Assembly (NCBI GenBank): GCA_040285855.1
Contig: JAUFOQ010000003.1
Coordinates: 2,108,001-2,172,000, forward strand
Reading direction: 5' to 3'
DNA length: 64,000 nt
Source: Eukaryota sp. GEM-RC1
Taxonomy: Eukaryota
Of this stretch, positions 2,393-35,800 are shown in pieces. The position numbers and the translations under genes were made by a program. How positions within the stretch are numbered: the stretch's first letter is position 1; the number at the start of each line of letters is the position of its first letter. The notes below the pieces were generated by a model that was not told the origin of the DNA, searched no databases, and saw nothing but the letters and a program-made list of their open reading frames with translations.

Positions 2393-3727
2393 CTATGAGA
2401 AGGAATCAGAAACGTCATCAACATCTTGATCAGCAATCAACCCCTCATGTTTCGATGTCAAGAGTTGCAAATCCTTGACATTGGTTAAATATCGCCAATA
2501 GTTAATCAAAATTAAATCTACGAACAAACAGTGAACAATCCAATTTTCGAACAATGATAGTAAAACAAATCTAGAGATTAAAAAAGAAGGTACGTGAAAC
2601 ATTAGAAGTCCCATCAACAGATTCAGCCAGGGTCTCTTGAATTCTTGAGACCCGAAGAGTACGGCTTCAGCAAAGAAAGAAAGACAATTGATGTAAAGTC
2701 CAATGGTAAAAATAATAGAAAGAATTAAGACAAACAGAAAGGATTCAGTCTGGACTGTCGATGCGATGAAGAAATTGAGAAGGAGAATTAATGGAAATCC
2801 AAATATTGTGGAATATTTGGAAATTGTCAGTGAACAAGTGGTGAATGAACTAAACTGGAATTGACTAGCAGTCATTGAAATGAAGACAGAAGCGATTCCA
2901 TCGACGTAATTACAAATAAAAACCCAAAAATTTAAAAAAAGCTGGTAAACAATGAAAACATTTGGCGAATCTTTTGATAATAGTAATCCATTTGACAAAT
3001 AAAGTAGATCAATCAGCGAGCTTTTCATTATTAAATGGAAAGAGTTCTTGGTGAACACTGACAAGAGAATTTGTGGATTCTGAGAGGACAAAACCAGACC
3101 ATAAAGCCCAAAATGTTTGATAACAAAACGGACACCTATTACCAGAGCAACTATCACACCAATCAATTGTGATAGACCAATAAACCCGAGTTTTGAGTGC
3201 AATAATGACACTCCAAGAAAAGAAAGTAAAATCCAGGAAAAAGAGGATAAGACTTGAACAAACAGAACTGCCTTAAAGTCAGAGAACCCCTGTAAAATTC
3301 CGACAGTGGTTGACAGGAACAATGAAAAAGCCATCGAAAAAATTCTTAAGTAAAAGAAGATCTTACCAACATGGATCAATTCAGAAGAGTAGAGAACACG
3401 ATGAACAAGAAAGGGCGCGATAGAGATGAGGAGAAAGGACAAAATGAAGGAAAGAACATATGCGAGGTGACAAACTAGGGATATGCTAACGTGATCTTTC
3501 TTGGAAAGGAAATGTGCCACTTTTGATGTAAGAATTACAATCAAAACAGAAAAGAAGCACTTGATAGGATCAAGAAACAGACATGTGCGGCTGTATGCTT
3601 CGATATAAACATTGTCTATCAGAAAGCTTTTAATGAACAGTGGAACTAAAAAAGAAGCCAAGGGAGACAATAGATGTCTTACAATGGATGGAAGAGCAGC
3701 ATTGAACACAACAGATGCAGCGAACAT
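2393..3727 (-). CDS. MATE-family-like multi-pass transporter
   Basis: About 11-12 hydrophobic segments with GILQGFSD and YVDGIASV MATE-like motifs. First ATG is at 3727; the longer ORF in the track overlaps the tRNA. Confidence 0.7.
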   Translation of the reverse strand: MFAASVVFNAALPSIVRHLLSPLASFLVPLFIKSFLIDNVYIEAYSRTCLFLDPIKCFFSVLIVILTSKVAHFLSKKDHVSISLVCHLAYVLSFILSFLLISIAPFLVHRVLYSSELIHVGKIFFYLRIFSMAFSLFLSTTVGILQGFSDFKAVLFVQVLSSFSWILLSFLGVSLLHSKLGFIGLSQLIGVIVALVIGVRFVIKHFGLYGLVLSSQNPQILLSVFTKNSFHLIMKSSLIDLLYLSNGLLLSKDSPNVFIVYQLFLNFWVFICNYVDGIASVFISMTASQFQFSSFTTCSLTISKYSTIFGFPLILLLNFFIASTVQTESFLFVLILSIIFTIGLYINCLSFFAEAVLFGSQEFKRPWLNLLMGLLMFHVPSFLISRFVLLSLFENWIVHCLFVDLILINYWRYLTNVKDLQLLTSKHEGLIADQDVDDVSDSFS

Positions 3728-3770
3728 TCGCAGTTTAAAGAAAGCCTTCAAATTAAAATAAAAGACTGTG

Positions 3771-3843
3771 TTCTCCTGGTGGGGGTCGAACCCACGACCC
3801 TCGCTACATAAGAGCGATGCGCTAACCACTGCGCCACAGGAGA
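3771..3843 (-). tRNA. tRNA-Ile(UAU), intronless
   Basis: Cloverleaf: acceptor TCTCCTG/CAGGAGA, D arm GCGC-AGTGGTTA-GCGC, anticodon arm TCGCT-CTTATGT-AGCGA, T arm GTGGG-TTCGACC-CCCAC. A T-run follows downstream. Confidence 0.93.
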
Positions 3844-4574
3844 ATTATACTTCGCATGCTGCTGTACCCTTTGATTTCCTCCATGTAACAGGAGATGGGA
3901 ACTAGAATATAGACTAAAATCACAATTCGATTCAAATTGATTTTCATTCAATGCTCATTGATGAAATGTAAGGAAGTTTATGAGTGCAGATTTGCAAATA
4001 CAAACCAATAATACGGGATATATCGATATGTGTTCATATACGTAATATCGACTAACTGGGTTGGGTTTTGAAAATATTGCCAATGCACCATACGTATATT
4101 CGCGCCATGCGTCCGAAGTAACGACTTGCTGAGATTTATGAATCTCCATTTGATGTCATTGGTGGGTTTCTGTTTCTTTTAAAGTTGCCCATGGACTCGA
4201 ATGAATGCCTACTCAAGTTTTACTGGACCAGTCGAGTATATGTCGAGTCTTTTATATGTTTTAAACGACATAAAACTGTAGATTTTGCAATATCGAGCAT
4301 CACAATTTCTCATGTGTTCTTTTTTTGTGATTGAAACCATACCCGGACAATACACTTTTTAGTATATTCTGCATTTTTCATTTTTCAGTATTAAAATTCT
4401 GTATTTTTTACGAATAAGTTTCTGAAACTTACTTACCTGTAAAAGTACATATTTAGGATGTCTTTTATCTCCAATTTCTTTTCATGGGATTTAATGAAGG
4501 ATCTAAAAACATGATATCAATCAAGACACAAAACGAAGTAGTTGTAATAGTTTATCAACACTAAAACAGAGAAC

Positions 4575-5924: not shown

Positions 5925-8900
5925 CTAATCTAAATATTCATCCCAATGAAGCAGCTTCGTCATACTCCGAGTCTTAGTTAACATTGAATCAGTCCTATAG
6001 AGAGTCTTTTCTTGACCAGCATTCAAATGAGACATAGACACGGCTCTTTTGAGGAGAGAATCTGATTTAGGAGGAGAAATAACAGTGGGGTTTTCAGAGT
6101 TGGATGGCGAATCAACTTCAAAGAAACTACTAACTTGACGGGGGGAAAATGCCATAGAAGAAGCACGGGACATGGAAGAGGTAAGAGCAATAGGTGGAAG
6201 ATCATCTGGAAGGAAAACTTCAGGTCCTTGTTTTACTTTTTCGATATCCCACACTTTTTGCCACATTTCAGGATGGCTCAGAAGTGAAAGATAATTATGG
6301 AAATAAGGTACCTTTAAGTGGGGGTCTTCAGCTGTGGGCATTCTTTTTTTAGGAAGATACTCAAATAAATTATAAAGCATGGCGAAGACTCTAAACATCA
6401 ATAACATCAACCGATAAAAGGGAAAAAGAAGGACAACAATGAAAGGACTTTGCAGATCCTTTCTCCGACGTAACTTAATATAATTGAATGTAAAAATAAA
6501 AACATTTTGAATCAAAATAACTCGGTAATACACTAAACCTAACAGAGCGTAATCTTGAAGCATAATAAAATATAGAATAATTAAAATGTGAAAATAATCT
6601 CGAATAATTGTTGCAACTTCATAAAGATAAAAAAACTTCAAAATAAAAGTATCAGATGACCAAAATCTGAGAATGTGTTCGCAATATTTAAAAAAGAATC
6701 TGTGAGCACACGCGTCCCAAGACTTAACACGTTGAGCAAATAAACTCTTGTCATCGACAACATGATCTCCTAAGGTAAACTTTTTGAAATATTTTGACAA
6801 ACCAAAGAAATCTTCACCAGCATGGAAAATGTCAGTAGGAGGGCTAGTAAGAGCCGGAGTAGCTGATAAAGTAATTAATCTAGGTGGATTTGCAAATTTT
6901 TCTCGTAAGAGAAAACCAATCTGTGTCTTGAATTAGCCAGCAAGAAACACAACAAACATCTTCTCCATGGAAAGCACTATTATGATGATCAAGCACTGTC
7001 ACTAGCAATTCTTTCTTCCAAATACTGATTGCACCCTAGAATAAGAAGAAAGTTGAGAAACAAACATGTGGATAAGCAGCAGATCCAAAGTTAGATTGGC
7101 AAAGCTTCATTAAACCTGACAACTGGAATTAGAAAGTAAAAGTGATTCAAACCATGTATTCCATATCTTGAAACCAAACAAGTAAAGAACGGCGTCTCCA
7201 AGAATGTTTCAGCTTTGGTTGGTTAATATCAGCACGAATTGTAATGACGGCACCAGCAACATCTGGTTCTTCCATTAAATGAGTTTGCCAACTCATATCT
7301 GATGGGATTTGCACGTCATCATCCATAATCACGACATGAGTGATTTCTGGTCGATATGCTAGGATGTTCTTGGCTACATACTGTAAGCAAAAGTTTTGTT
7401 ACCAGTAGGTATATACACGTAATTTACTTGTCTACCCCACTTTTTAAGCCTTTTAATTACAGAAATTGTTTTGTCATTAGGGTAAGGTTCTTTCATATTA
7501 GCATTATGACAAACATACACGTTCCCATCGGCTTGAGTTAAAATTTAAAATATTTGTAAAACATACCACAACTAGAAGAAGCAAGACGCAAAGTTCTTTC
7601 AAAGTCATCACACTTCCCCTCACGAATTTCCTCAAGATCCTCTCTAGACGGTGGTCTAAAGAAATTCTTTGTGGAATTTTTCAAAATTAAATCAGGATCA
7701 CGACCTGCAGAGATATGACTGGCAATCAAAATCGCAACGTGATTATTTTGAGCGTTGTAACCCTTAACCAACCGATGTTCTGGCCAACTAACTGAAACGA
7801 AAGCAAGAAGTAACAGGAGATATTCTAATCCCAATATAAACATTGTTACATATATTGATTGAAAAGAATGGAAGAGCTTATTGGCAACAATGAAATCTCT
7901 GTAGAACAAAAAAACAATCAATAATAGCAATAAGGCAAAAACAACACAGAAGAAAATTTCTACAAAATCTCGAGTTCCAGGATGGAAATTCTTCTTCAAA
8001 TCTTCAAAATGTTCAAGCATCGACACCCAAGTCTCATTATTAAAAACTTGATTAGGACACTGTGGGGCAGGTTCTTCGTTCCTTTCTTCCGTAGTAATCC
8101 AATCTTTAGGTAAGGAGTGATACATTTCATAGGAAGTATTGGGCGCTGTTTTAAAAGAAGGTTTGAAATGTTCAAAAGCTAAGGCAAGAATTAAAAACAA
8201 GAAGAACAGTAATAGTAGAAAGTAGTCAACAGCATCAAATACATCAAAATCTTCATCAAAAGCAAGATAATTGAAGGAAATTGAAGTAATTGTAGATCCT
8301 TCTAAAGAAAGCACGAAAAATTCAAATCCAGAATAATCCACAGATTTAATTTCAATTGAATATTTTAAAGCAGTTTCACCACAGTCATACTCCAAAAGAA
8401 ACAAAACTACATCTGGAATTCGGTTAAAATCTGAGGAAAACTCAGCTCTAATTGAGAGATATGAATAATCGGAATCATCAAGATTGTAATCAACATGAGA
8501 GTCTGAGCTCAACCTGATGACATCATAGACAAAATTGTTATAAACAACAAAGTCTTTCTCAAACATGACAAAGTTATACCGAGCATCTTCTAAAAGTCCC
8601 TTACTTCGAATACCATGATAGAAATACACAAGATCGTCAGACCCAGACGAATTCACTAATTGAAAAGAATTGTAAATATTTAAATTATTAAAATTAGTTT
8701 CTGGACTGAAACGAAGCGCTGATATCGAATAAAAGTAGACCAAAGATGAGTTTAAACTTTCGAAGCTACCAATTTCCAACGGTAAGGGTTGATGACCGTC
8801 CCAAAAAGTCACGTGATCAATCATCTGAGATTCAATTGGGTCCTCTTCTTCAGGAATTTGCTGTAAAGTAGGAGCTCCTCGGAAGTCAACAGACCTCACG

Positions 8901-11209
8901 TCATCAATACAATTCTGACCGACTGCTATCCACGTGACTGTGAGTTCATTAATATAAGCTGGTAGAAATCTCGTAATTCTAATTTCAAAATGAGACGTGC
9001 TTCGAAGTGTCAATACCACGTCAACACTTGCCGGATGAGACGATTCTATAGATCCAATTGCAATAAAAACATTCGGCTCTGAAGTAAACTCTTGGTTAAA
9101 GTATATCTCACCAATAAACACAGTTCCGCTGCCTCCTTGATGAAGCGACCATTCCAAATCACGACTAAGACGATACTGGACAGTACCAGCATCAAGGACC
9201 AAGGATTGTGGGCAGATGACGTCACCAAAGATATCTGATAGAGATGGAAAGGAAAAACCAAGGAATATCAACATGAAAAAGAGAATAATTGAGGAATAAA
9301 CAACAATGGCTTTAAGTTTCTTCCAGGAAAACAATCTTGCATACTCAGGAACAACGCGTTCCTTCTTAATTTCAGGAGTAACTACCTCGGAAAGTGAAGC
9401 TTCAGTATCAATAGATCGATAACCAAGACTTTCCTCTTCTGAAGTACTGACCTGGAAACCATCCTCAACTTTAATGGAAACTTCACTCACGTGACGACAG
9501 TCAGGATCAATAAGTGATGTGCTATCATCACCAGAAGGGAGCTCACCACATAACGATTCCCTATCATCTTCATTAGAATCAGTAGAATGATAAGTTACCT
9601 CGTTATCAATAACATTTTCTAACATTGAAGTAAACTTTGTCTTGCCACTACTTTCAGACTTATGACTAGTAGTACTAGAAGTGAAATGATGAACTTTAGA
9701 AGAAGACTGAGATTGGTCAAAGAGAGATTCTTGATGTTCAGAGAGCTTGGAGTCTTGGTCTTGTGTAGACTTTTTAAATAAATCTAAAGAATTTTGAGCT
9801 AAAGGCGGTCGAGCAATCGATCCACGACGAGCCATTACCTGCTCTCCTTCTAGAATCTTTTCCATTTTAGGTTTATTTCCTTGATGTTTAAGTCCCTTGA
9901 CTAGACCTATCCTACGAAAGAACAAACACGTGGACAAAGACTCTGACACAGCACCAGGATCAAGATCAAGAGAAGCAATCATGATTAATCTTGGGGAATA
10001 GGACATATAAAAACGAAGAACTGAAGTTAATGGACAGTTTCTGTAGGGAACGTGTTTCTTTTGATTTGTTACAGCAGACAGGACACCTTCCAAAAAGAAA
10101 AGGGATTGATTGATTTTGACAGATCTTCTTATAAAAGAACTTTGATTAATTGGTATATCAGTAACTTTAATGGGAGCAGCAAGATCAACAAAACATAATT
10201 TACTATGAGTTTGTTGAACCTTCGAGACCAAATGAATTGATAAAACAACGTGTGACCTTGTTGACACGGCATTCCATTTAGTTCTTTCAACTCTCCTCAA
10301 GTCATTTGCATTGGATAGCATGACTAGAGCTTCACGTAATTTTGATACTTTATTCTGAGAAAGTCCTGGAATAGACGTGACCATTGGATTGCTACTTGCA
10401 CTGCAAATAATTGAGGAATTTAGCATACGAGGCGATTTCTTCCCATGTTCATCAGATGACGTTTGCAGAAGGTCATAAACCTCGTCATCTTTTAACTCCA
10501 CAAAGGAAAGCAAAACTTCCTGATCATCAGTAAGTCTTCGAAAGATGGAATGAAGAGATAAAGGAATCAGACCAATAGACTCTTGGGAAACACAAGTAGG
10601 AGAACCAAAGAGAGTGTAAGTCTTACCACTAGCTATCCCTCCGTAAACAAAGAAGGTAGATGAAACGTTTTGGAAGAGACCTAGAACAGCAGGGGAAGCG
10701 ATTTCCTTATAAACATCAAAGTTATCATCAGCAAGAATTGAAGTGAAAGGAAACGACCATAGCTCTTTGGTGTTGTTGACTGTGGTATCAGTAGAGTTCT
10801 TAGGCACACGAATAGAAATCGAGTTATCGGTAGGTTGATCTAAAAGAAGGTTCTTAGATTTGGTAGGTTTAAGCCGACAGTAAGCAGCAAGTGGAGCAGC
10901 TTTGCGAGCAACAGAGGATCTGGGAGTAAACGGTTCAAATGAAGAATCATTGAGAAGGAAACGGTTCACAAAGGGATGAAAGACTTCTGGCTCGTCTGAT
11001 GTGTTCAAAGCATGTTTAATGTTGGTAGTATCACTGTGAGAAATAGTAGGGGAAGTGTTAATAGTACGAGACCTGATGTTGAGTCGATTCTTGTTTTTGA
11101 CGTTAGTTGGTGGTGAAGATCTAGAAGCAGTAGAATTTTTAGCTGACCTGGCCTCACTGTTTGAATCGGTGTTGGAAAGCAGCTGAGATAGATGTGAGCC
11201 AGTAAACAA
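5925..11209 (-). CDS. Kinesin motor - H-type lectin - processive GT2 (chitin/hyaluronan synthase-like) fusion, ~1,720 aa. Exons 11209-7567, 7531-7153 (one base missing at ~7385), 7122-7066, 7035-6958, 6926-5925. Start codon unresolved.
   Basis: Kinesin motifs: YCRLKP, GGIASGKTYT, VYDLL, NAVSTRSH, VDLAAP, INQSLFFLE, HVPYRN. Four TM segments precede the catalytic part. After splicing, GT2 motifs appear in order: YIPTGNKTFA, IMDDDV, FQDMEY, HGAISIW, FHGED, LFAQRVKSW, then C-terminal TMs. Confidence 0.8.
6927..6957 (-). other. Intron 4 (31 nt, phase 0)
   Basis: GTTTGT...CTAATTCAAG. Removal gives FHGED-TQIGFLL, in frame with the 5925-6800 ORF. Confidence 0.85.
7036..7065 (-). other. Intron 3 (30 nt, phase 0)
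   Basis: GTTTGT...CTTATTCTAG. Removal gives AYPH-GAISIWKK. Confidence 0.85.
7123..7152 (-). other. Intron 2 (30 nt, phase 0)
   Basis: GTTTGA...CTAATTCCAG. Contains an in-frame stop; removal gives FQDMEYM-LSGLMK. Confidence 0.85.
7532..7566 (-). other. Spliceosomal intron 1 of kinesin-GT2 gene (35 nt, phase 1)
   Basis: GTATGT...TTAACTCAAG. Removal joins the 1223-aa ORF to the GT2 frame (SSSC-ADGNVYVCHN). Confidence 0.8.
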
Positions 11210-11265
11210 GTGAGTTGGTGGAGAACTTGTGAGAAGAATCTACGACACCCGAATGTGATTAGGAT

Positions 11266-11948: not shown

Positions 11949-12050
11949 TGTTGGCCACAGGTGTTATGATGTGGCAGTGTTGAAGTATGGTGTTGCCATT
12001 TATAAATTATATTATCCTTTCCCCTTGCATGTCTACCTTTACAGGTATCA
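11949..12050 (+). repeat. 5' LTR (102 bp)
   Basis: TGTTGGCCACAGG...TTTACAGGTATCA, identical to 18588-18689. Confidence 0.95.
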
Positions 12051-12100
12051 ATAATTATTGTCCTTCTCGTGGTAGAAGCGACGAAGATTCGACAGCTCGT

Positions 12101-15100
12101 ATGAGTCCTCGAACTGAAGATCCCTCGACAGCTTCTAGAAGCCCTCGAGATGAAGGAGAAGCGACAACCATGTTTGGTCCTCGCATTCGAAGTCCTTCTG
12201 GTTCCCCACCTGGTTCCAGAGGAGATGAAGCTCCATTGAAAGATTCCCAGACAACCAATCCTGGTCCTCTGGATGATTCCCAGACAACCTCTCAAGGTCC
12301 TCTGGATGTTCCCCAGACAACTGGTCAAAGTCCTCTGGAAGATTCCCAGACAACCTCTCAAGGTCCTCTGGATGATTCCCAGACAACCTCTCAAGGTCCT
12401 CTGGATGGTTATATTTCCCAAACAACCCCTCAAGGTGCTTTGGACGAATCAACTCCCCAAACAACCCCTCAAGGTGCTTTTGGATGTCGCTGCAAACCAG
12501 ACAACCTCTCACGGTCCTCTGGCTGGTTCCTCTGTCGTATCCCATGACGTCGTTCAAATTGAAGATTTGTCACGGGAGGAAGAACGTGAGTTCCATAAAC
12601 TACGTCTCGAAGCAACGCAGAAAGAACTAAAAGCTGCAGCCGACAAGGTCAACACGTTGTTATATGCCAAACCTACTCATGGTTGGGCTATTCAGTCCCA
12701 TAAACATATGACCGACGAGGAGCGCAGGAGATATAACAATGCAGAGAAGGCAAAGCTAGTCCAACGCCAGTTCCCCGAGTCATCTCGAAACCCGCAAAAT
12801 TGGCACAGAGCAGCGATACCGAATGAGCTCATTCCGTTCGCCAGTAGCCAGGACTCGCTCATTGGAATTGACGATCGCCAACTGTGGCAAATGGCCAAGT
12901 TCGATCCCTTCAATGTGCTCCTTCGTCAAAGATTGAAGGAAGCCAAGCACTTCCTAATCAGAAATGTACCTCCTATGACTCCCCCAGAAGTAATCACTCG
13001 TTACCTTGCAGGTAAGTTTGACCCACGTCGCGGGGACACATATAGATTTCCCGTTAGTGAATCCTGGGATCCAGCTCATGGAATCTCAGTCGAACCACTG
13101 ATGGAAACGGTTCATCCATCCGGACAGAGTTTGGTATATGAGTACCCAGCATGGTACCAATACAGCTTGTCCACTAAGAAAGCTGCATGCAGAGATGTTG
13201 CAATAAGCACAGCGTGGCTTCCCGAAACCCCCGTATACGACAACTTACCTCCTGGCAAATCGTCGGAGCAAGTTTATAGCATTATGCCCCCCACTAGATA
13301 TGGAACAATCGTCCCTTTCGGAATGAGAGGTGACCAATTGATCGATCCTACTGAGGGTTCTAATAAAAGGGAACGGCAAATCCATGCTGCCCTGCATGAT
13401 GACCGCGAACTTCTTGATTCAACGAAACTTCCGTCTCAAGAAGAATATCCAGGTCAAAGCAAACGCCCTGAAACAGTGATCGTTTACAAAATTCTGGACC
13501 GAACCTTGGGTACAACTGAGGAAATCGAGAAGTCCGAATTCGACGAACCCACTCGTCAGGAAAGTAGTGCTTCTTCGAGAGATCCCTTGACAACAAGTCA
13601 ACTGGAGAAAACTCCAAGAGTGAAACAAAAGAAAAGAACTACTGTTCTACGTTCACCGTCACTATCACCGACACCACCCGGATACAGACCTCCAGTGTAT
13701 AGTCCTAGTCCTGCTTCAGCACGAAAAGAATTCGAACGCCAACAAGAAGAATGGAAACGCCGAGAAGAGAGTCGTCGAGAGCCATCCCCATCTGAACCCG
13801 AGGAACCAAGCTCCTCCGAAGAAGACCAAGGAACATCTCATCTGACCTCCTCTGCTATCTCTGGTCGTGGTCACCCCAAAACGTCTAAATCGACTTTAAA
13901 ATCTAAAAACAAATTCCGTCCAAAAACTCTAGACAGTGAGGACCCGAAGAAAATTTTAAATTTTATCTTAGATTTCACGTACTGGTCAAAAGAAATTCGC
14001 GGTCAAGGTGATGGCCCCTATTCTACTGAGTTAGGTGAACCTGTACATGGCTTCGACCTAGTACGCACTTCTCTCAAGGAAGTAGACCCATCTGAATGTT
14101 CTAAGTTTATTAGCACAGAACTGGTTTACTCCTGGAGAATGCTGAATGAATTGGAGATGGAAGGTACGAGTGATGAGAAACTTTGGTTATACATCCTTCT
14201 ACTGACTCAATTTCCATCCTCTTCGACGGCTATCCAGGCCCTCAAGAGAGTTCAGTGCACTCTTAGCCAAGAGCCCACTCAAGCAATCAATGCCTATTTG
14301 AAAGGTGTGATTACAATCATTCAACGGTCAACTGCTGTTCCCACAGTCCACCAACACGAACGCAAACATGTCCCCGCAAACCTAATTGCCGACGTCATGT
14401 TAAAGAAGTTAGATCCCCAAGGTGAATCATCCCTATTAACGGATCTGAAAATTCATTGGGTTGATCGTCTCACTTCTAGAGACAATCAGTACGAATTGCC
14501 TCAGTTCATTAATGAACTCAAGGCCGCGTACATTGATTGGAAACGCTCTTCCGCTACTGTTAGCACGTCTCGCCCAACTGAAAAGCCCGCCGAAAGACGA
14601 CAACACAGAGGCTCCAAGAAAAGAGATCAATCTCAGGACCAAAGAAGAGGTCCCAGAGACGAAGTCGTTTGTTACAATTGTAACAAGAAGGGTCATCTTG
14701 CCAAAAACTGCCGCTCAAAGAAAGCAGAGCAACCCCAACGACAACACAAACGTAGAGCTGGTGACGATAGAAGTTCAAAAAAATCAAATAAAGATAGTAA
14801 CTACATTTTTCAACTTAACAAAATCGACAACACCCCTCTAGAATATTCAAACCCCATAGCGTCCTTAGACTCACTGGGTAGTGGTAACAAAATAAACAGC
14901 TTACAGAACCTAGGGGTCGATGATAGTGGAAAAGGGTCCCTATCTTTTCGACTGTTGATCAACAATGTGCCAGTAACCGGCGAATTTGACACAGCTGCAA
15001 CATGCTCTGTCATTACACAAGATTTAGCCCGTCTCTGTGAATGGATATGATCGATGACAGCATCGATTACCTTTCAGCGAATAATATTCGTGCAACATCC

Positions 15101-18100
15101 CTGGGGAGTGCAATTGGTACACTGACGTTCAACGTCGGGAGTCTGGCCAACAACGTTCACATGAAGCACTGTCTTCCTATAATTCCTGGTACCGGAATAT
15201 TTTTAATAGGACGTGACCTGCTTAACGAACTTGGACTCCTGACGGATGATGGTTTAGTCATTCAACTAGACAAAGAGCACCGCACTATCCTGAACGCAGA
15301 GAGTGAATTTGACGCAAGGATGATAACTCCTCCAAATTCCATCGGGAATCAATCAATTTTGAATGTTTCTAACGATGTGAACGGCGACTCTCAATCAAAT
15401 CCAAACTCAGGTTCCGATTTTGAACGATTCATAGATGATTCTGGCTGTATCATTCGTCTTGACGACACCACTCGAAGAGAGACATTGCTGAAAACACTAA
15501 GTGAGTACGCAGACGTTTTTTCAGAAGACATTGACCCCGATGGCATAGACTGCTCTCCGATGTCAATCCCCTTCTATGACGAAAACGTCACTGTCTTTCG
15601 TCCTCCCCGGAAGCTAAATCCCACAAAACAACGGGTAGCCGAGGAGATTTTTAATGAATTAATACGTAAAGGATGGGCCGTACCATCAAACGGAAAGTTC
15701 AGCAGTCCCATAGTCTTGGTCGTCTACAATGACCACCGCAAGCCTCGTTTAACTGGAGATTACAGTGGACTTGATGGGATCAATGCTAATACCAAACCTG
15801 TGAAGCCGAACCTTCCAAGGATTTGCGATACCCTGGAGTTCCTATCGAAAGCAAATTTCATAGGAACACTCGACCTCCCAAAAGCCTTCTGGCAGCTAAA
15901 AGTAGCTGACGAGGACGTCGATAAGACCACTCTGTCTATTCCAGGTATGTCAATTAGCTTCAAACGAGCATGTTTTGGTTTAAAGAATGTACCTGCAATC
16001 TTCCAAAACATCATGATGGAAATCTTCAGTTGTGAAGGTGTGTTCATTTATATCGACGATATAATTGTCATTGGCAACACCTTCGAAGAGCTTCTTTCAA
16101 GAATCGCAAACGTACTTGAACGCGCCAGACGCTACCGAGTACGGTTTGGCTTAAAGAAGTGTCATTTCACGACTTCAAGTCATAAAATAAAGATTCTAGG
16201 CAGCGACTTTGTGAACAAAACCCGTCACATTGACGAGAGTAGGGTCTCGGCTTTAAAGAGTCTACCGTCCCCCAAGACACTTCCTGAGGTTCGAAGTCTC
16301 ATTGGCGCGTTGAATTACATCCGTGATTGGATTCCGAATTTCTCGGACCTGATGTCACCGATTATTAAACTAACCAGAGACAAACCAAAGAAGATTTACT
16401 GGACAGACGAACATGAAAACTTATTAAGCGAAATAAAACGGTTGATAATCAATAACATGGCTCTAGACTTACCTGACGAAGATAAGAACATTATCATATC
16501 GACAGACGCATCGGACATCGCCGTAGGAGGAGTCATCTGGCAGGAAGAAAACCCCCCAGCTCCACCCGGCACTCCACTGAAGGATCGCAAGGTAAAACCG
16601 GTATCCTTCTATAGCCGACTCCTTAACGACAGTCAGCAAAATTGGTCAGCTATCCAGAAAGAGCTGTACGCAATCTTGTTGATTCTGACTGAATCAAACC
16701 TAGAAAGCTTCCTCATAAGTAGACACTTGGTGATCTTCACTGATCACAGGAACCTTTCCTTTCTCATATCCGCCCCAGAAAAGAATAGGATCGTAAAACG
16801 TTGGATCCCCATCTTATCCGAGTTTAGTTTTGAGATTGAACACGTTGCAGGAGAAGACAACCACTGGGCTGACATGCTCTCTCGCGTTATTGACCGCAAT
16901 CCAGTGGAAACAATCAAATCAGTAAATCTGATTGAACGCCACACCGAGGATCACATCACACTCAATCGTAATGATTTGAGACATGATGAAGCCAACTACA
17001 TCGAGTCTCAACCACATGACAACTCAGTTTATGTAATTAGCAACCTCCGTGAACTTTCAACAGATGGCAAGTTGCCCCTGTTCAACTCATGGCTATCAAC
17101 CATCAGAGCTGAGCAGCTAACGGCAATAAAAGCAAAAGACACTTTATTCACAAAAGCTAACCTTTGTCCTAAGAGCAAGACTTACGTTAACAGCAAGAAT
17201 AAGATACTGATACCGTCGAGCTTACGTAAGAAAGTCCTCTACATGCTCCACGGACTCGTCCAGTCTGGTCACCCTAACTTGAAAAATAGTTTGGAAAAGC
17301 TGTTCAATAGTGGCTACTTTTGGCCTAGCATGAAGGTTGACATGATCAACCACGTGAATCGATGTCCATCCTGTCAGAAAACGGCACCTGTCCGTAAACT
17401 GGCAATTGAGCCGACGGGTTCTCTCTGGGCTAATCGACCTTTTGCAAGACTTAACGTCGACACAATAGGACCTCTGCCAAAGGATCAAAATGGAAACCAG
17501 TTTCTACTGGTATTTGTTGACTCGTTCAGCAGATACACCATTTTAAGCCCCCTCGAGGATCTGAATAGCACTGAAGTAGCATATCGCCTGGTTTGGGATG
17601 TAATAGCTATTTTTGGTATACCGTTCTGTATCCATAGTGATAACGGCAAGGAGTTTGCTAACGCTACATTCGAGGCAGTTTGCAACCTACTGGCCATTGA
17701 AGTCAGTCGATCGATTCCTCATTTCTCTCAGAGTAATGGTCTGGTGGAACGACGACATAGAGACGTGCTGCAAAGTCTACGCCGTCTTCTTGTAGATTTC
17801 AATGATTACGACAATTGGTCAACATACATTCCTTCGGTTCAGCTCCAAATCAATTCAACTAAGAGTAGTGTAACGGGACATTCCCCCCTACGAGTTGATG
17901 TTTGGTAGCGACATAAGCCCAGGTGCAGACCCCGGTACTATGTTAAAAGCGATCGAATGTTCCACTTCGGAAATTTCGTTCATCGACGACATGGCTCTGA
18001 AACTGAAACGCCTTAAAGAAAAGAGAGAAAAGGCAGGGGCTCGACAATCGAGTAAGGCTCCTTCTAAGAAATCTCAACCTAATCCCTTTAAGGCAGGGGA

Positions 18101-18587
18101 CCTTGTGCTCAAGGCAACTAAGTCATCCAAGCTACATGGTAGTTATTGTGGACCATTCTTAGTAATGTCAATTGATTCCAATACTTCCATGTCTATCAAG
18201 AATTTGATCACTGGTCACGTTGGTAAAGCAAGCATCCATCAATGCAAGATCTATCAGACAGATTTACCCAATGATGATGAGCTTCACAAGGCTGTTGCTT
18301 CGGGTGATACTGAAGAACATATCTTGGTCAAAGTCCTTGATCGATATGATACCCCTGAAGGCGAGTATTGCACAGTAGTCTGGTTTGGTGGCGAACACTC
18401 AGCAGTTTCCCTAAAAGACATCACGAATACGAAAGCATACTCAGAGTTTATTAAATTAAATAGTAATAGTTGTAATGACTCCACTGTCCACAGGCCTAAG
18501 AAGAAAAGAGTATCCAGCGAGCAATCTCAGAAAGCTAAGTCACCTGTAGCCAAGAGAACAAGGAACTCGAAAAGAGAGAAGAGGTAG
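12101..18587 (+). CDS. Gag-Pol polyprotein, probably one ORF split by single-base indels at ~12480, ~15040 and ~17885
   Basis: Zn knuckle CYNCNKKGHLAKNC; protease FDTAA; RT LDLPKAFWQ and YIDD; RNase H STDASD; integrase HHCC plus D,D(35)E (VDT, HSDNG, VERR); C-terminal chromodomain-like segment. All frame breaks lie in short homopolymers. Confidence 0.88.
12225..12522 (+). repeat. 33-bp (partly 36-bp) coding tandem repeat, ~8 copies, in the Gag N-terminus
   Basis: Unit GGTCCTCTGGATGATTCCCAGACAACCTCTCAA encodes GPLDDSQTTSQ. Confidence 0.9.
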
Positions 18588-18689
18588 TGTTGGCCACAGG
18601 TGTTATGATGTGGCAGTGTTGAAGTATGGTGTTGCCATTTATAAATTATATTATCCTTTCCCCTTGCATGTCTACCTTTACAGGTATCA
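18588..18689 (+). repeat. 3' LTR (102 bp)
   Basis: Identical to the 5' LTR. Preceded by AAAAGAGAGAAGAGGTAG and followed by TSD TAAC. Confidence 0.95.
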
Positions 18690-20407: not shown

Positions 20408-20566
20408 AAGATAATTATTTGATTTAATTGATCAGAAAGATACGATGTCGAGTGTTTCTCTCATTTTCATCAATTGAAGGCATTGTTGGGCTGATGAAAA
20501 AATACAAATACAAATACCCTTTAGTGTTTATGTATCGATATTTGTTGTCAATTTCCTCAACCAAAA

Positions 20567-22064
20567 ATGGTTTCCACCAAATTACCCCATTCATCCTCGT
20601 TTCGAAGCATCAGCTCCTTTGTCGATTTCATTGGACCTACTCGACGTTTTTCAGTTTCCTCAGCAGCTATAACTGAAGAGTTAGATCCCAATCAACTTGG
20701 CCTTTCCCTCAAACCTCTTCCTGAAGAGGATATCAGTGAACTAGAATGGGATTTAACTGATGAAATCAGTGATCTACCAATGGTTGAAGTCTATGAACGC
20801 TTGGACGAATACCTGGGCAATGAACATGACTACAACATATCCTCATCCACACTAGAAGTGGACTTTCTACTGAAACTTGCCTTTGCCCTAACTATCAACG
20901 GAATGCCTAGTACTGCCGTAGAATCTCACATCATTAAAATTGCCAAACGTCTAGGCTTCACAGCTTCCGTTTGCTTGTCCCCTCGTCAAATCTCTCTTTG
21001 CTTTACACCACTTGATTCCACCCACTCTTCCTCTAGAACTCGTACCTTCATCATCCACTGTGATGACGTTGGTTCAGTCTCCAACGTAGCTTCTCTGTCA
21101 CTGCTTTACAATCTAGCGGAGGCAATCTCTGAAGGTACTCTTTCTCTTGAATCAGCTTTCAAGGGTCTCCTGGATATTCTACAAAACCCCCAGAGTATTC
21201 CAAGAAGAGTAGAATTCTAGCTGGAGGGTTTGCAAGTGCAGGACTCGTAGCCCTGTTTTTGACTCGTCACTTGTTGCTATAACGGTGGCATTCATTGGTG
21301 GATTTGTTGAACAATTAGTTGAGTTTTTTGTTTGTCAACGTTATCCTGGATATGCCAAGATTCACACCTTTGTCACTCCTCTTTTATTGACCCTCTTGAT
21401 CTCTTCTTTCCACATGCTCTTTCCCCAGGCTCAATTCGATCTGCTGTCAGTATTACTAATGTCTTCAATGTGGATTCTGCCTGGTATGTCTTTAGCTTCT
21501 TCTTTAAGTGAGTTAGCTAGGAGAAACATGTCAATAGGTTCATCTAGGTTGTTTTACGCCTTCATGGTGGCAATTCTAGTATCGTATGCTATTCAAATAG
21601 GTTTCTTTATCATTGGAGCTTTCAAAAGTGATTTCCCCCCAGAGATTACTGGATCAGTTGACTGGGGTTTACCAATGTTAAGTTTTTGGTTCCTCTTAAC
21701 TTCCCTTTCTTTCTGCGTGCTGATACATACTCCAGTTAATCTATGGTTTCCAGTGATATCAGCAAGTTGTATTGCTTTTGTTACATACCGAACCTTAATT
21801 ATGTCATCAACCTACACTAACTTTGCTACCCTGGGTGCTGCTCTACTAGGTGGGTTGTGGTCTAGGTTGTGGAGTGCGGCTACTGGAAAGACACTGTTAA
21901 TTCCTCTTACTGGTGCAATCATTTTGCTAGTTCCTGGATCGTTGTCAGTCAGAAGTTTCCTTTCAATGTTTTCTGATAAGGAAATGGGTCCTGACATTGC
22001 GAGTCAAATGATTCAGACCTCTGTTTCTTTAGCTATTGGAGTTGTTATTAGTACAAGTAAGTAA
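20567..22064 (+). CDS. ThrE-family (threonine/serine exporter, Prm10-like) membrane protein; two single-base deletions near 21215-21260
   Basis: NGMPSTAVE...LSPRQI ThrE N-domain, ILPGMSLASSLSEL and LLVPGS. The linker EILAGGFASAGLVALFFD is restored by adding one base in each of two homopolymers. Confidence 0.85.
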
Positions 22065-32820: not shown

Positions 32821-35800
32821 TTAATTTTTAATTTTTCGCTCAAATTCAGAAACCAATTTTTCCATTAACAAATCGTAAATATAATCTCCAACCAGTTGCT
32901 TGTACTTTGCAAGTAAAAACGTGATGTAATCAAATTTTGCCGGCAACTTTTCCACCGAGTCAACTGCATCAAAAAAGTCGAAATCTAACCGTCGCAAATC
33001 TATCAACGTGTTAAAAAACTCATAATGATAGTGATAGAAATCCCAATTATGAAGGAAACAATCTGGTAAATGACTAGCTAGGAGGAAACTACACGACAGG
33101 GGATTCTTACTTGCTAAATGGCGAACATAGCTTTTGTCTAAGAGAAACGGTGATTGTTCACGTGGCTTTTTTTGAATATTTGGGACGATTTACAGAGCCT
33201 AAAAGAGCGCAGACTGTCGTAAACATAAATTTAGAATTTTTGGTGAAAATTGAGTCGAAGCTTGGACAGAATCGTTGTAGTATTTCAGTGAAAAATGCAA
33301 TCAAAGCATCATCATAACGACTGACATCAAGGGACAGCCAGTAGACATTTTCTGGTAAGTGAATAGTACCATTATTGGTAGTGCTAAAATGACGACTACT
33401 TGGCTCATTGGGAGAAATGACAGTCAGCCGTTGGATTGATGACGTTTTTGATTGGATTTCTTCCTCCAAAAACCAATCAAAAGTACGATCACCAAAGAAG
33501 CCCAGCAATACACATATACAATTCTTCAAAACGAACTTGCAAAACTTGTTCAAAAATTCATGTTGACGTTGGGAATAATACAAAACTAGCGAATCTTCCT
33601 CATATACAACTCCATGTAAATGAAAGACTTCTGTTGACTTCCATGATGACGTGAGCTCTGAAATTGAGGCCAGCTTAGTGTTATGAAATGGATTTGAAGT
33701 ACAACAGCCGAGGGGAATTACAGTTTGAAAGTTTCTGTCAGGGTGAAAAAGGTTGAATATAGACTCTAGAACACAGTCGAAGTTTGTGGTAGCAAATCTA
33801 AACAAGTTGGAGTTGTACAAAGTCATGAGACATCCAAGGTAAGGGCTGTTCTCCTCTGACCAATAATTTAATTTTTGAATAAATTTGATGGGGTCATAAT
33901 CGTCTTCATAGCACTCACAACCATCTTTTTTGACTGTTGATTGAATAACTGAAAGAGTTTCCTTTGCGACATCTTCATAATCGAATATTCCTAAACTAAA
34001 GTCAATCATTGTGGTGCTGAACAGAATTGCAACAAAATCTCCAATAAAATTGTAAACGTTAACCTTTCCTTGACGAGAGCTATCCTGAATTCGATGTGAA
34101 ACAATGTGGTAGTTGACATCCATTGAAGAAGCTTCGTTCGTTTTATATAAGGAACTCCAATTTAGATCAATGAAATGAGTAGAATTTGAAAAGGCTTCAC
34201 CCCGTAATTTTTTAAATTTCGGATCATTAATGAAACTTTTGTAGAGGGAAATTCCATTATAGTCCACATTGTCGACAGAAAGTAACAATCCTACAGGAAA
34301 GCATTTTAGCCACATAATGATAATTATAAGAGATTTGTACGATAGAATTGACTTGTAGCTGGTAGAAGACAGCTTTAAGAAAGGGTATACATGATTCAGT
34401 AGATCAAAACGATTATGTCTGACGCTACGTATACAGAAGCAATCAAACAAATCAACTGACTCATGGATATCAGAAATAGTGACAGTTACATCAATCAAAT
34501 TTGATGAGGTTCCAGGTCGAGACTCAAAATGATACTCGGAAAAGCCATTTGTTTGCTTGTAAGGTTCTGGTAACTGTCGAAATATTCGAGAAAATTCTTG
34601 AAAAAGTAGAAGACAAACCAGCATTATTTTATCTGTATCAAGGGAATACTTCTTTAAAACCAAATTCTGTAATAATGATTGAAAGTGACGAGTGATCCCA
34701 TTTCCAATCAGAATATTGACAGGTTCACGAGAATTTGATTGTTGATTGTCTAGGACCCATTTGACTAGAGATTCTAAATGAGTAAAAGACACGTGGAACC
34801 TTTTACCAAATGCGGCAAGAAATTCATCCACTGATCCTTTATTAGCTTCAATGATTTCCTTAGCTTGATGAGAGATGGCAAATGCCTTTCCACGGAAGTC
34901 TGTTGATTTCTCTTGACTGATGACGAAGCACGAGGAGAGAGAATACTGAGAAATGACAGCTTGGACAATATCAACAAAGGGATAGGAATTCCAAGGAGTA
35001 GTTTGGATTAATTCCAAATAAAGCGTTAGAACAGATTGAAAATTTAAATAATCAAGGAATGGATCATTTTCTCCGATTGAAGAAGGGCAATGTAATACAA
35101 AAGAATCGTAAAGTGTTGGAACAGGAAATTGTGTGAAGCTTTTTAATTTAGGTGTAAATTTGAAAAAGGAAGAGCATCAACCAAACAGGAATCAGTTTCT
35201 ATTTCATAGAAATTTAAAAACTCTTCAAAACATCGAAGAAAATCAGTTGGTGATGTCGAATTACTGTCAATAACGAAAAGAAGGGGTATAAAACTAGTTT
35301 CAAAGAAAGTGAGGACGGGGTGGAAACATCCAAATTTGATATATATTTAAACATTTGAAATAGTGCAACATCAACGGGGTTCGAGCCACGATACTTCTGC
35401 ATTATTGAAGAAAAACTTTTAAATTTACGCCCTAAATTACAGAAGTAGCCACAATCGACTAAAAACTCATCAACAGATTTTGATTCTAAAGTATTTAAAT
35501 CCTTGCAAAACAGTGATCCTAACTGCTGACATGATTGTTCTGAAATTAAAGAACTAGAATTAAAGAAAAAGAGGGAGACATGGCTGAAGTCGGGAGAACA
35601 CCAAAAACAAAATCAGCTGAACATTTGAAATAAAGATAATATTTGGAGATTCGTTTAGGTCAATCAAACTGACAGTATTAAAATGATTGATGACGTGAGA
35701 ATAAAATACTTCAGACCAAGAAACTAGAGGACTTTGGGTCAGACTGCCATGGACTTGATTGAAAACGAATGGAAAAATTCCAATAATCCAGTTAGCAATG

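Follow-up and report, generated by a model that had tools for sequence, protein, structure and literature searches.

A kinesin-lectin-GT2 fusion gene of Skoliomonas predicted to encode a microtubule-anchored polysaccharide synthase

The window analysed here is a stretch of 64,000 nucleotides (nt) from Eukaryota sp. GEM-RC1 (GCA_040285855.1, contig JAUFOQ010000003.1, positions 2,108,001 to 2,172,000), and its minus strand very probably encodes, between window positions 11239 and 5925, a single protein in which a GT2 glycosyltransferase is fused to a kinesin head and to an ectodomain of H-type-lectin repeats. GEM-RC, TZLM1-RC and TZLM3-RCL are described in PMC11603281 as isolates of Skoliomonas, free-living anaerobic metamonads. 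The kinesin-GT2 fusion is real and conserved, and apparently undescribed. We read it as a lectin-GT2 polysaccharide synthase carrying a non-walking anchor derived from kinesin-9, a reading whose chances, taken as a whole, we place slightly above even. All positions below refer to the window, and all parts of the gene lie on the minus strand.

Reading frame and gene model

One frame without stops runs from 11239 to 7538 and comprises 1233 codons (1223 when counted from 11209, the extent given in the first-pass annotation, whose single frame from kinesin to GT2 was thus confirmed and slightly extended). Given the base composition, the chance of a stop-free frame of 1233 codons is ~1e-33 (log10 P ~ -33), and for the 196-codon linker taken alone the log10 P of staying open is ~ -5. 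The frame encodes a kinesin motor, a linker, a first transmembrane helix (TM1), H-type-lectin repeats, TM2-4 and the first strands of the GT2 domain. A Pfam search placed in this same long frame both PF00225 (Kinesin; 179 bits, cut-off 29.3, E 1.2e-52) and H_lectin (65.7 bits over two stretches, cut-off 24, E 4.1e-18).

The long coding exon (7567..11239) shares 99.7% identity with residues 2-1211 of the NCBI record P0001, which is annotated as a hypothetical protein and comes from the Skoliomonas isolate Eukaryota sp. GEM-RC1 (Metamonada). Short exons follow it, over which the remainder of the GT2 domain is split. Five GT-AG introns, all with intact ends, separate these exons, with lengths of 35 nt (intron 1, 7532..7566), 30 nt (intron 2, 7123..7152), 30 nt (intron 3, 7036..7065), 31 nt (intron 4, 6927..6957) and 33 nt (intron 5, 6770..6802). 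The spliced product aligned with the orthologues without gaps at any of the five sites. Four of these introns had been recognized at first; the fifth (6802-6770) lies in frame and had been overlooked, and it was accepted because it is needed for the match to the orthologues. The last exon (5925..6769) contains three C-terminal TM helices (~6617-6375), a low-complexity tail and the stop codon. Since the first ATG of the long frame is codon 272, within the motor, a short first exon is required, for which there are three short-intron candidates; the public model picks a further, different junction.

The missing base proposed in the first-pass annotation was located in a T-run (7389..7392), where the frame shifts by one base through either an assembly error or a real lesion; at this site the orthologues, and likewise the near-identical paralogue P0002, stay in frame. 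The expectation that open reading frame callers would split the gene into three pieces did not hold, as the public record P0001 keeps all domains in one model. This record crosses the frame gap by means of a 35-nt intron (7381-7347), which we rejected because it cuts out residues conserved in the orthologues. Two other candidates were discarded as well, namely a 22-nt GT-AG segment (7402-7381) that leaves the frame unrestored and a 38-nt intron (7418-7381) that restores the frame but loses the conserved GNKT motif.

Kinesin, H_lectin and GT2 were found in the same order in two further Skoliomonas genomes, in P0003 and P0032 of TZLM1-RC and in P0004 of TZLM3-RCL, so that the single polypeptide with this domain order is a layout conserved in orthologues. 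P0003 and P0032 are full length and intact over the break of the window copy, and the P0004 model ends after QRVKS. The GEM-RC1 paralogue P0002 is 85% identical, and its model starts in the last motor helix.

The GT2 enzyme, its membrane topology and the lectin ectodomain

The window gene carries the near-invariant GT2 motifs DDD, Q..EY, GED and QR...W. DDD (7315..7323) is predicted to bind the nucleotide sugar and metal, FQDMEY lies at 7156..7173, the Asp of FHGED (6958..6972) is the predicted catalytic base and aligns with the EDR of chitin synthase 7wjm, and QRVKSW (6717..6734) is the family form of QxxRW; all four motifs read in the first-pass annotation are therefore present. Across 129 family members, the three positions of DDD are kept in 129, 121 and 129, those of Q..EY in 123, 128 and 124, the Asp of GED in 127, and those of QR...W in 128, 128 and 127. 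In a search of the PDB, a profile built from 89 GT2 sequences matched chitin synthases (E 3e-5) and nothing else below E 0.01, and it aligned GED with EDR and QRVxSW with QRKRW with one residue extra; a profile of seven sequences had no PDB match. Chitin synthases bear the signatures EDR, as seen in 7wjm, and QRRRW. Neither is found here, where the sequences read GED(A/T)Q and QRVKSW, and P0001, P0003 and P0004 gave no Chitin_synth Pfam match at E 0.1. Because the profile matches chitin synthases and yet the motifs differ, we consider the enzyme to be related to chitin synthases but not to be one.

The structure prediction suggested by the first-pass annotation yielded a confident model of P0032 from TM1 to the C-terminus, with a predicted local distance difference test score (pLDDT) of 85.7 and a predicted template modelling score (pTM) of 0.81. 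In this model TM1 leads into three beta-strand blocks, after which come TM2, an interface helix and TM3-4; the GT-A domain is next, and another three TM helices follow it. Five TM helices flank the GT domain, and the GT-A domain packs on the interface and TM helices as in membrane GT2 synthases of the hyaluronan (HAS), cellulose (CesA) and chitin (CHS) synthase type. Its best fold match was the viral hyaluronan synthase 9kqc (Z 23.5, root-mean-square deviation 3.2, 373 aligned), followed by cellulose and chitin synthases and by PcManGT, a non-processive mannosyltransferase. The GT2 part is thus probably a polysaccharide synthase and, as far as the model can predict, likely a processive exporter.

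Head and membrane are connected by an acidic Ser/Thr-rich linker of ~196 residues (9311..9904) without coiled-coil signal. In six such linkers, 21-28% of whose residues are hydrophobic, a crude heptad test used in place of a dedicated predictor scored 2-5 of 8, and no coiled coil was detected behind the motor. Four hydrophobic segments lie ahead of the GT2 start: TM1 (9248..9310), with its N-terminus predicted inside, and, within 7790..8224, TM2 (8224-8174), then after a cytosolic loop TM3 (7966-7901) and TM4 (7858-7790). The four kinesin-bearing proteins all have 4-6 Lys/Arg before TM1 and 0 after it, a bias that puts the head on the cytosolic side of the membrane and the lectin block on the outer side; the three passes of TM2-4 would then return the chain to the cytosol for the GT2 domain. 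The kinesin-free relatives P0035 and P0027 (skoliomonad) and P0036 (Barthelona) start straight at TM1, which fits TM1 being an N-in anchor. Counting sequons did not distinguish the two sides of the membrane, and this criterion was abandoned. Overall, the protein is predicted to have seven TM helices, a cytosolic head and GT2 domain, and extracellular lectin repeats; the arrangement initially proposed, with motor and catalytic domain on the same cytosolic side, is thus supported by the basic residues at TM1 and by the P0032 model.

The H-type-lectin ectodomain (8258..9214) comprises two detected repeats and, presumably, a degenerate middle one; three repeats were detected in P0027, and the model of the orthologue P0032 has three beta-strand blocks in its ectodomain. 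The Thr-Trp motif of Helix pomatia agglutinin, whose Trp we take to be a sugar contact, is present in the kinesin-free P0035, P0027 and P0036 and in none of the detected lectin repeats of the kinesin-bearing P0001, P0003, P0004 and P0032. The proposal of the first-pass annotation that the protein also binds its polysaccharide is therefore, with an ectodomain only ~30% identical between species, a possibility. According to PMC8431231, H-type lectins are mostly specific for N-acetylgalactosamine, and Helix pomatia agglutinin is made of trimers; by analogy, a single chain with three repeats could adopt a pseudo-trimeric form. Folded alone and without an alignment, the lectin block gave a pLDDT of 35.8 and this model was not used, its sequence search against the PDB returned one match at chance level, and the fold searches with the larger P0032 model were filled by GT2 matches and gave no lectin-fold result.

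The kinesin-9-derived head and the readings it allows

The motor domain (9905..10882) has 7n61 and KIF9 as its closest solved structures, and the best 17 non-skoliomonad matches to the head all carry the kinesin-9 domain PF23735. In a phylogenetic tree the six skoliomonad heads were nested among 22 PF23735-bearing proteins with support 1.0, and in a second tree they grouped with 17 RNSMMT-type kinesin-9 proteins, a subgroup that we take to be kinesin-9B/KIF6, with ultrafast bootstrap (UFBoot) values of 97-100. By these sequence comparisons the head derives from a ciliary kinesin-9, with the caveat that its branch is long in both trees. The PF23735 tail is absent from all six skoliomonad proteins in the precomputed domain annotations.

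Within the nucleotide pocket, the P-loop GGIASGKT (10619..10642) retains GKT with the canonical Gln-Thr altered, switch I (NAVSTRSH, 10250..10273) is retained, and switch II (DLAAPI, 10169..10186) is degenerate with respect to the canonical DLAGSE. We compared these sites in 138 aligned motor domains, that is, the six skoliomonad heads and 132 other kinesins, a sample drawn from sequence-search matches and not from all kinesins. The Gly position of switch II is Ala in 6/6 skoliomonad heads and Gly in 132/132 others, and the Glu is kept in one skoliomonad head (P0004) as compared with 132/132 others. GK(T/S) of the P-loop occurs in all six heads and the canonical Gln-Thr in none; switch I reads N..STR(S/G)H in five of the six. 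On the microtubule face, the motif HxPYR..TSVLR is preserved as in kinesin-9 relatives, and the motifs of helix 4, of loop 12 and of helix 5 are kept. Identity between orthologues amounts to ~50% in the motor, ~27% in the linker, ~30% in the ectodomain and ~71% in the GT2 domain, and the difference between motor and linker indicates that the motor is conserved and not decaying.

The G234A substitution is reported to leave kinesin-1 without ATP hydrolysis or motility and stable on microtubules (PMC13016605), with rapid release of ADP (bioRxiv 2024.09.19.613825), and it also inactivates KIF17 (PMC4547097). Since G234A blocks hydrolysis and motion but keeps microtubule attachment, anchoring is favoured over travelling. 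The first-pass annotation had allowed for both; its anchoring half gains from the comparison, and its travelling half is disfavoured by DLAA in 6/6 heads and by the missing neck coiled coil. Judging from sequence, an anchor best accounts for a head that is conserved, has a switch of the rigor type and lacks a dimerising neck, and we consider it reasonably probable that the head is a non-walking microtubule anchor.

Two additional GEM-RC1 gene models concern the head or its position. In P0005 the same degenerate kinesin, 66% identical, is joined to a single TM helix, to carboxypeptidase-regulatory-like repeats and to leucine-rich repeats (LRRs) of the BspA type, and, as far as one gene model can suggest, P0005 is possibly a microtubule-anchored surface protein. 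P0074, a single gene model ending early in the GT2 domain, has a divergent HSP70 ATPase domain in the place of the kinesin, before TM1 and H-lectin repeats.

If these predictions hold, the gene family would encode a single membrane protein with three joined parts: a head derived from kinesin-9, an ectodomain of H-type-lectin repeats, and a GT2 enzyme likely to polymerise a surface polysaccharide and export it. With its degenerate switch II, the head would turn over little or no ATP and would bind microtubules stably, as the G234A literature suggests. Located in secretory vesicles or at the cell surface in the plasma membrane, the protein would grip microtubules without walking; the flexible linker of ~200 residues may hold the enzyme in the membrane above cortical, groove or flagellar microtubules, or else enzyme-bearing vesicles may be captured at microtubules. 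The glycan would then be laid down in a pattern set by microtubules, most likely as a cyst wall or plug, and failing that as a coat or an adhesive patch. The cysts of TZLM3-RCL are double-walled and plugged, and this isolate adheres by a posterior spike (PMC11603281). The cyst wall is our first guess and a coat or adhesive the second, with the chance of a cyst wall in particular falling somewhat short of even. It is rather doubtful that the wider scheme applies, in which evolution fixed the G234A state and so turned kinesin-9 into a natural rigor clamp that works as a swappable module, yielding a one-chain, microtubule-patterned synthase that builds the double-walled, plugged cyst out of a glycan not yet described, and also anchoring a BspA-type protein.

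Several observations weigh against the anchored-synthase reading. Microtubule binding by the head is a prediction, the G234A data come from kinesin-1 and kinesin-2 backgrounds and none from kinesin-9, and the P-loop of the skoliomonad heads is changed as well. In one study, mammalian Kif9 is described as being without obvious microtubule binding (PMC11334332). The myosin domain of the fungal synthase Mcs1 needs its ATPase, so that a dead head would not act by the same mechanism. On the enzyme side, PcManGT ties with hyaluronan synthase in a wide fold search (Z 21.0 vs 21.3). Finally, the window copy is frameshifted as sequenced, and cysts have been reported for TZLM3-RCL only, not for GEM-RC or TZLM1-RC (PMC11603281).

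The same data can be read otherwise. The head might be a slow working motor, with oligomers of the enzyme creeping along microtubules while extruding glycan: GK(T/S) and switch I are retained, P0004 keeps the Glu of switch II, Kif6 is described as slow yet processive at ~23 nm/s (PMC11334332), and oligomers in the membrane could replace a neck coiled coil. However, the Gly of switch II has become Ala in all six heads and the Glu is lost in five, G234A is reported to be motor-dead in KIF5B and KIF17, and the long acidic linker lacks a coiled coil, all of which make a slow motor unlikely. We consider it similarly improbable that the head does not bind microtubules at all and instead serves as a protein scaffold or as a nucleotide-sensing regulator of the enzyme. 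The long kinesin branch and the joint alteration of P-loop and switch II would agree with such a role, and so would the HSP70-type ATPase domain at the head position of the paralogue P0074, which indicates that the slot may accept other heads; on the other hand, the microtubule-face motifs of helix 4, loop 12 and helix 5 are kept in kinesin-9-like form, and the presence of the head on the unrelated single-pass BspA-LRR protein P0005 fits general anchoring better than regulation of an enzyme. As for the GT2 domain, it could be a non-processive transferase working on a lipid or on an acceptor held by the lectin, as PcManGT at Z 21, a cluster named ceramide glucosyltransferase among the atlas look-alikes and the lack of any characterised member found in the GT2 family would allow. 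Against this, the top Foldseek E-values belong to hyaluronan, cellulose and chitin synthases, the PDB matches of the family profile below E 0.01 are exclusively chitin synthases, QR..W and the five GT-flanking TM helices are retained, and the lectin repeats point away from the active site, so that we give a non-processive transferase little credit.

Two further alternatives concern the gene itself. All records are gene predictions, so the fusion could be an assembly or annotation artefact of separate genes. Yet kinesin to GT2 is one open, intron-free frame, the same order recurs in three independently assembled species, with two paralogues in TZLM1-RC, and the GT2 and kinesin trees each group the fusion genes; one layout in three species together with the splice-free stretch renders an artefact very unlikely. 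The window copy in particular may be a pseudogene or have its product cut inside GT2, which would be compatible with the anchored-synthase reading and which we hold to be improbable without dismissing it. Besides the one-base frameshift at the T-run, a young long terminal repeat (LTR) element lies ~700 bp upstream, at least one of GNKT, DDD and QR.KS is missing in 8 of the 11 GEM-RC1 family models that were listed, and the paralogue P0002 seems frameshifted at another place. Conversely, a gap in a T-run is a typical long-read error, the published skoliomonad assemblies being built, according to PMC11316075, from Nanopore reads with Illumina correction; ~1700 codons run without further stop or shift, the ends of all five introns are intact, and the GT2 branch is short. 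The shift may thus be a long-read homopolymer error. Whatever the state of this copy, the family-level finding holds because the TZLM1-RC genes are intact.

The upstream element is a young LTR retrotransposon on the plus strand (11949-18689). Its two LTRs (TG...CA), 102 nt each, are identical, the target-site duplication measures 4 nt, and gag carries a zinc knuckle, while pol, in another frame, comprises reverse transcriptase, RNase H and integrase; four 33-nt tandem copies (12232-12407) lie at the start of its gag region. The neighbouring genes code for a coiled-coil protein (679-1959), a MATE transporter (2393-3844) and a ThrE exporter in two frames (20525-22064), and further unrelated neighbours (to 57952) for eIF5, dynamin, a SIR2_2-domain protein (33158-35176), an Alg9-like mannosyltransferase and an SNF2 helicase. 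No glycan gene cluster was found among the window neighbours from 679 to 57952.

Origin of the fusion and comparison with known systems

A GT2 profile search of 1.84 billion representatives returned 439 clusters at E 0.001, and the family was surveyed in the best 150 of them. Three of these 150 were positive for the kinesin profile, all of them skoliomonad, and Pfam scans of 84 of the 150 revealed no other motor domains. Among 30 clusters looked up by name, those with a non-skoliomonad name belonged to Barthelona (2), Phalansterium, Stygiella and Telonema. A metagenome scan gave 202 pattern matches, none of which was confirmed. Of 158 matched GT2 domains, 129 were complete enough for a midpoint-rooted FastTree phylogeny. 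In it, all lectin-bearing enzymes, from Skoliomonas as well as Barthelona, formed one clade (support 1.0), inside which the kinesin-bearing enzymes formed a clade of their own (support 1.0). Barthelona has the lectin-GT2 core without kinesin. The simplest account of these sequences would be an ancestral lectin-GT2 enzyme to which kinesin was added once, in Skoliomonas, the Barthelona genomes having been searched non-exhaustively.

Other members of the family depart from this layout. The lectin-GT2 paralogues P0033 (TZLM1-RC) and P0034 (TZLM3-RCL) have a signal peptide, an unassigned ectodomain and extra TM helices before TM1. P0039, P0041, P0043-P0045, P0048 and P0050 show that the GT2 family expanded a second time within Skoliomonas and Barthelona, to proteins of up to ~2900 residues whose long N-terminal parts are without Pfam matches.

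No kinesin-fused synthase was described in the titles and abstract starts searched, a coverage mostly outside subscription journals, and the skoliomonad genome paper uses neither 'kinesin' nor 'glycosyl' in its main text. Among the kinesin architectures compiled by Wickstead et al. (PMC2867816), neither a lectin nor a chitin synthase appears, but 'KISc-Gly_t' is given for one kinesin-14A model of Phytophthora sojae. If our reading is true, this would be the first known glycan synthase with a kinesin of its own, and fusions of motor and wall enzyme would exist on microtubules besides actin. The head would be a naturally occurring, conserved counterpart of the classic rigor mutation, and the genes would be candidates for building the cyst wall in the group that is sister to the fornicates; for Giardia, PMC13315228 describes cyst wall synthase as an activity 'tentatively called' CWS. 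The 439 clusters also point to a widespread, uncharacterised GT2 family of protists.

The head is nested among kinesin-9B/KIF6-type ciliary kinesins and shares their loop 12/helix 5 motif; unlike ciliary kinesin-9, it has no PF23735 tail and no coiled coil, its switch II is degenerate and it is membrane-anchored. Over the GT2 domain and flanking helices, the fold is that of hyaluronan synthases (Chlorella virus, Xenopus) and BcsA/CesA (Z 17-23.5), whereas identity to hyaluronan and cellulose synthases is 11-15% and the family has its own motifs GNKT, DDD, QDxEY, HGA, GED and QRVxSW. Transmembrane kinesins such as Dictyostelium Kif9 have a motor anchored directly in the membrane, but no enzyme or lectin ectodomain. 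In plants, the CSI1/POM2 linker of the cellulose synthase complex ties synthesis to cortical microtubules with no active motor; there the linker is a separate protein, here the link lies inside the enzyme. Oomycete MIT-domain chitin synthases are likewise GT2 synthases, and their N-terminal domain takes its name from interaction with microtubules, but MIT is no motor fold, and PMC8851075 reports in its title binding to phosphatidic acid.

The closest parallel, already drawn in the first-pass annotation, is with the fungal class V/VII myosin-chitin synthases (also covered in PMC5122149), such as Mcs1 of Ustilago, in which a cytoskeletal motor is N-terminal to a membrane GT2 synthase. According to PMC3252574, the myosin-17 domain of Mcs1 tethers vesicles, with no motility in vitro and with its ATPase needed, and it offers a precedent for tethering without walking. 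The differences lie in the use of kinesin and microtubules instead of myosin and actin, with kinesin found in place of the N-terminal myosin motor domain of class V/VII enzymes, in a head that looks ATPase-impaired where Mcs1 requires its ATPase, in the absence of the EDR/QRRRW signature and in the added extracellular lectin block. The fusion is likely a convergent, microtubule-based counterpart of the fungal myosin-chitin synthases.

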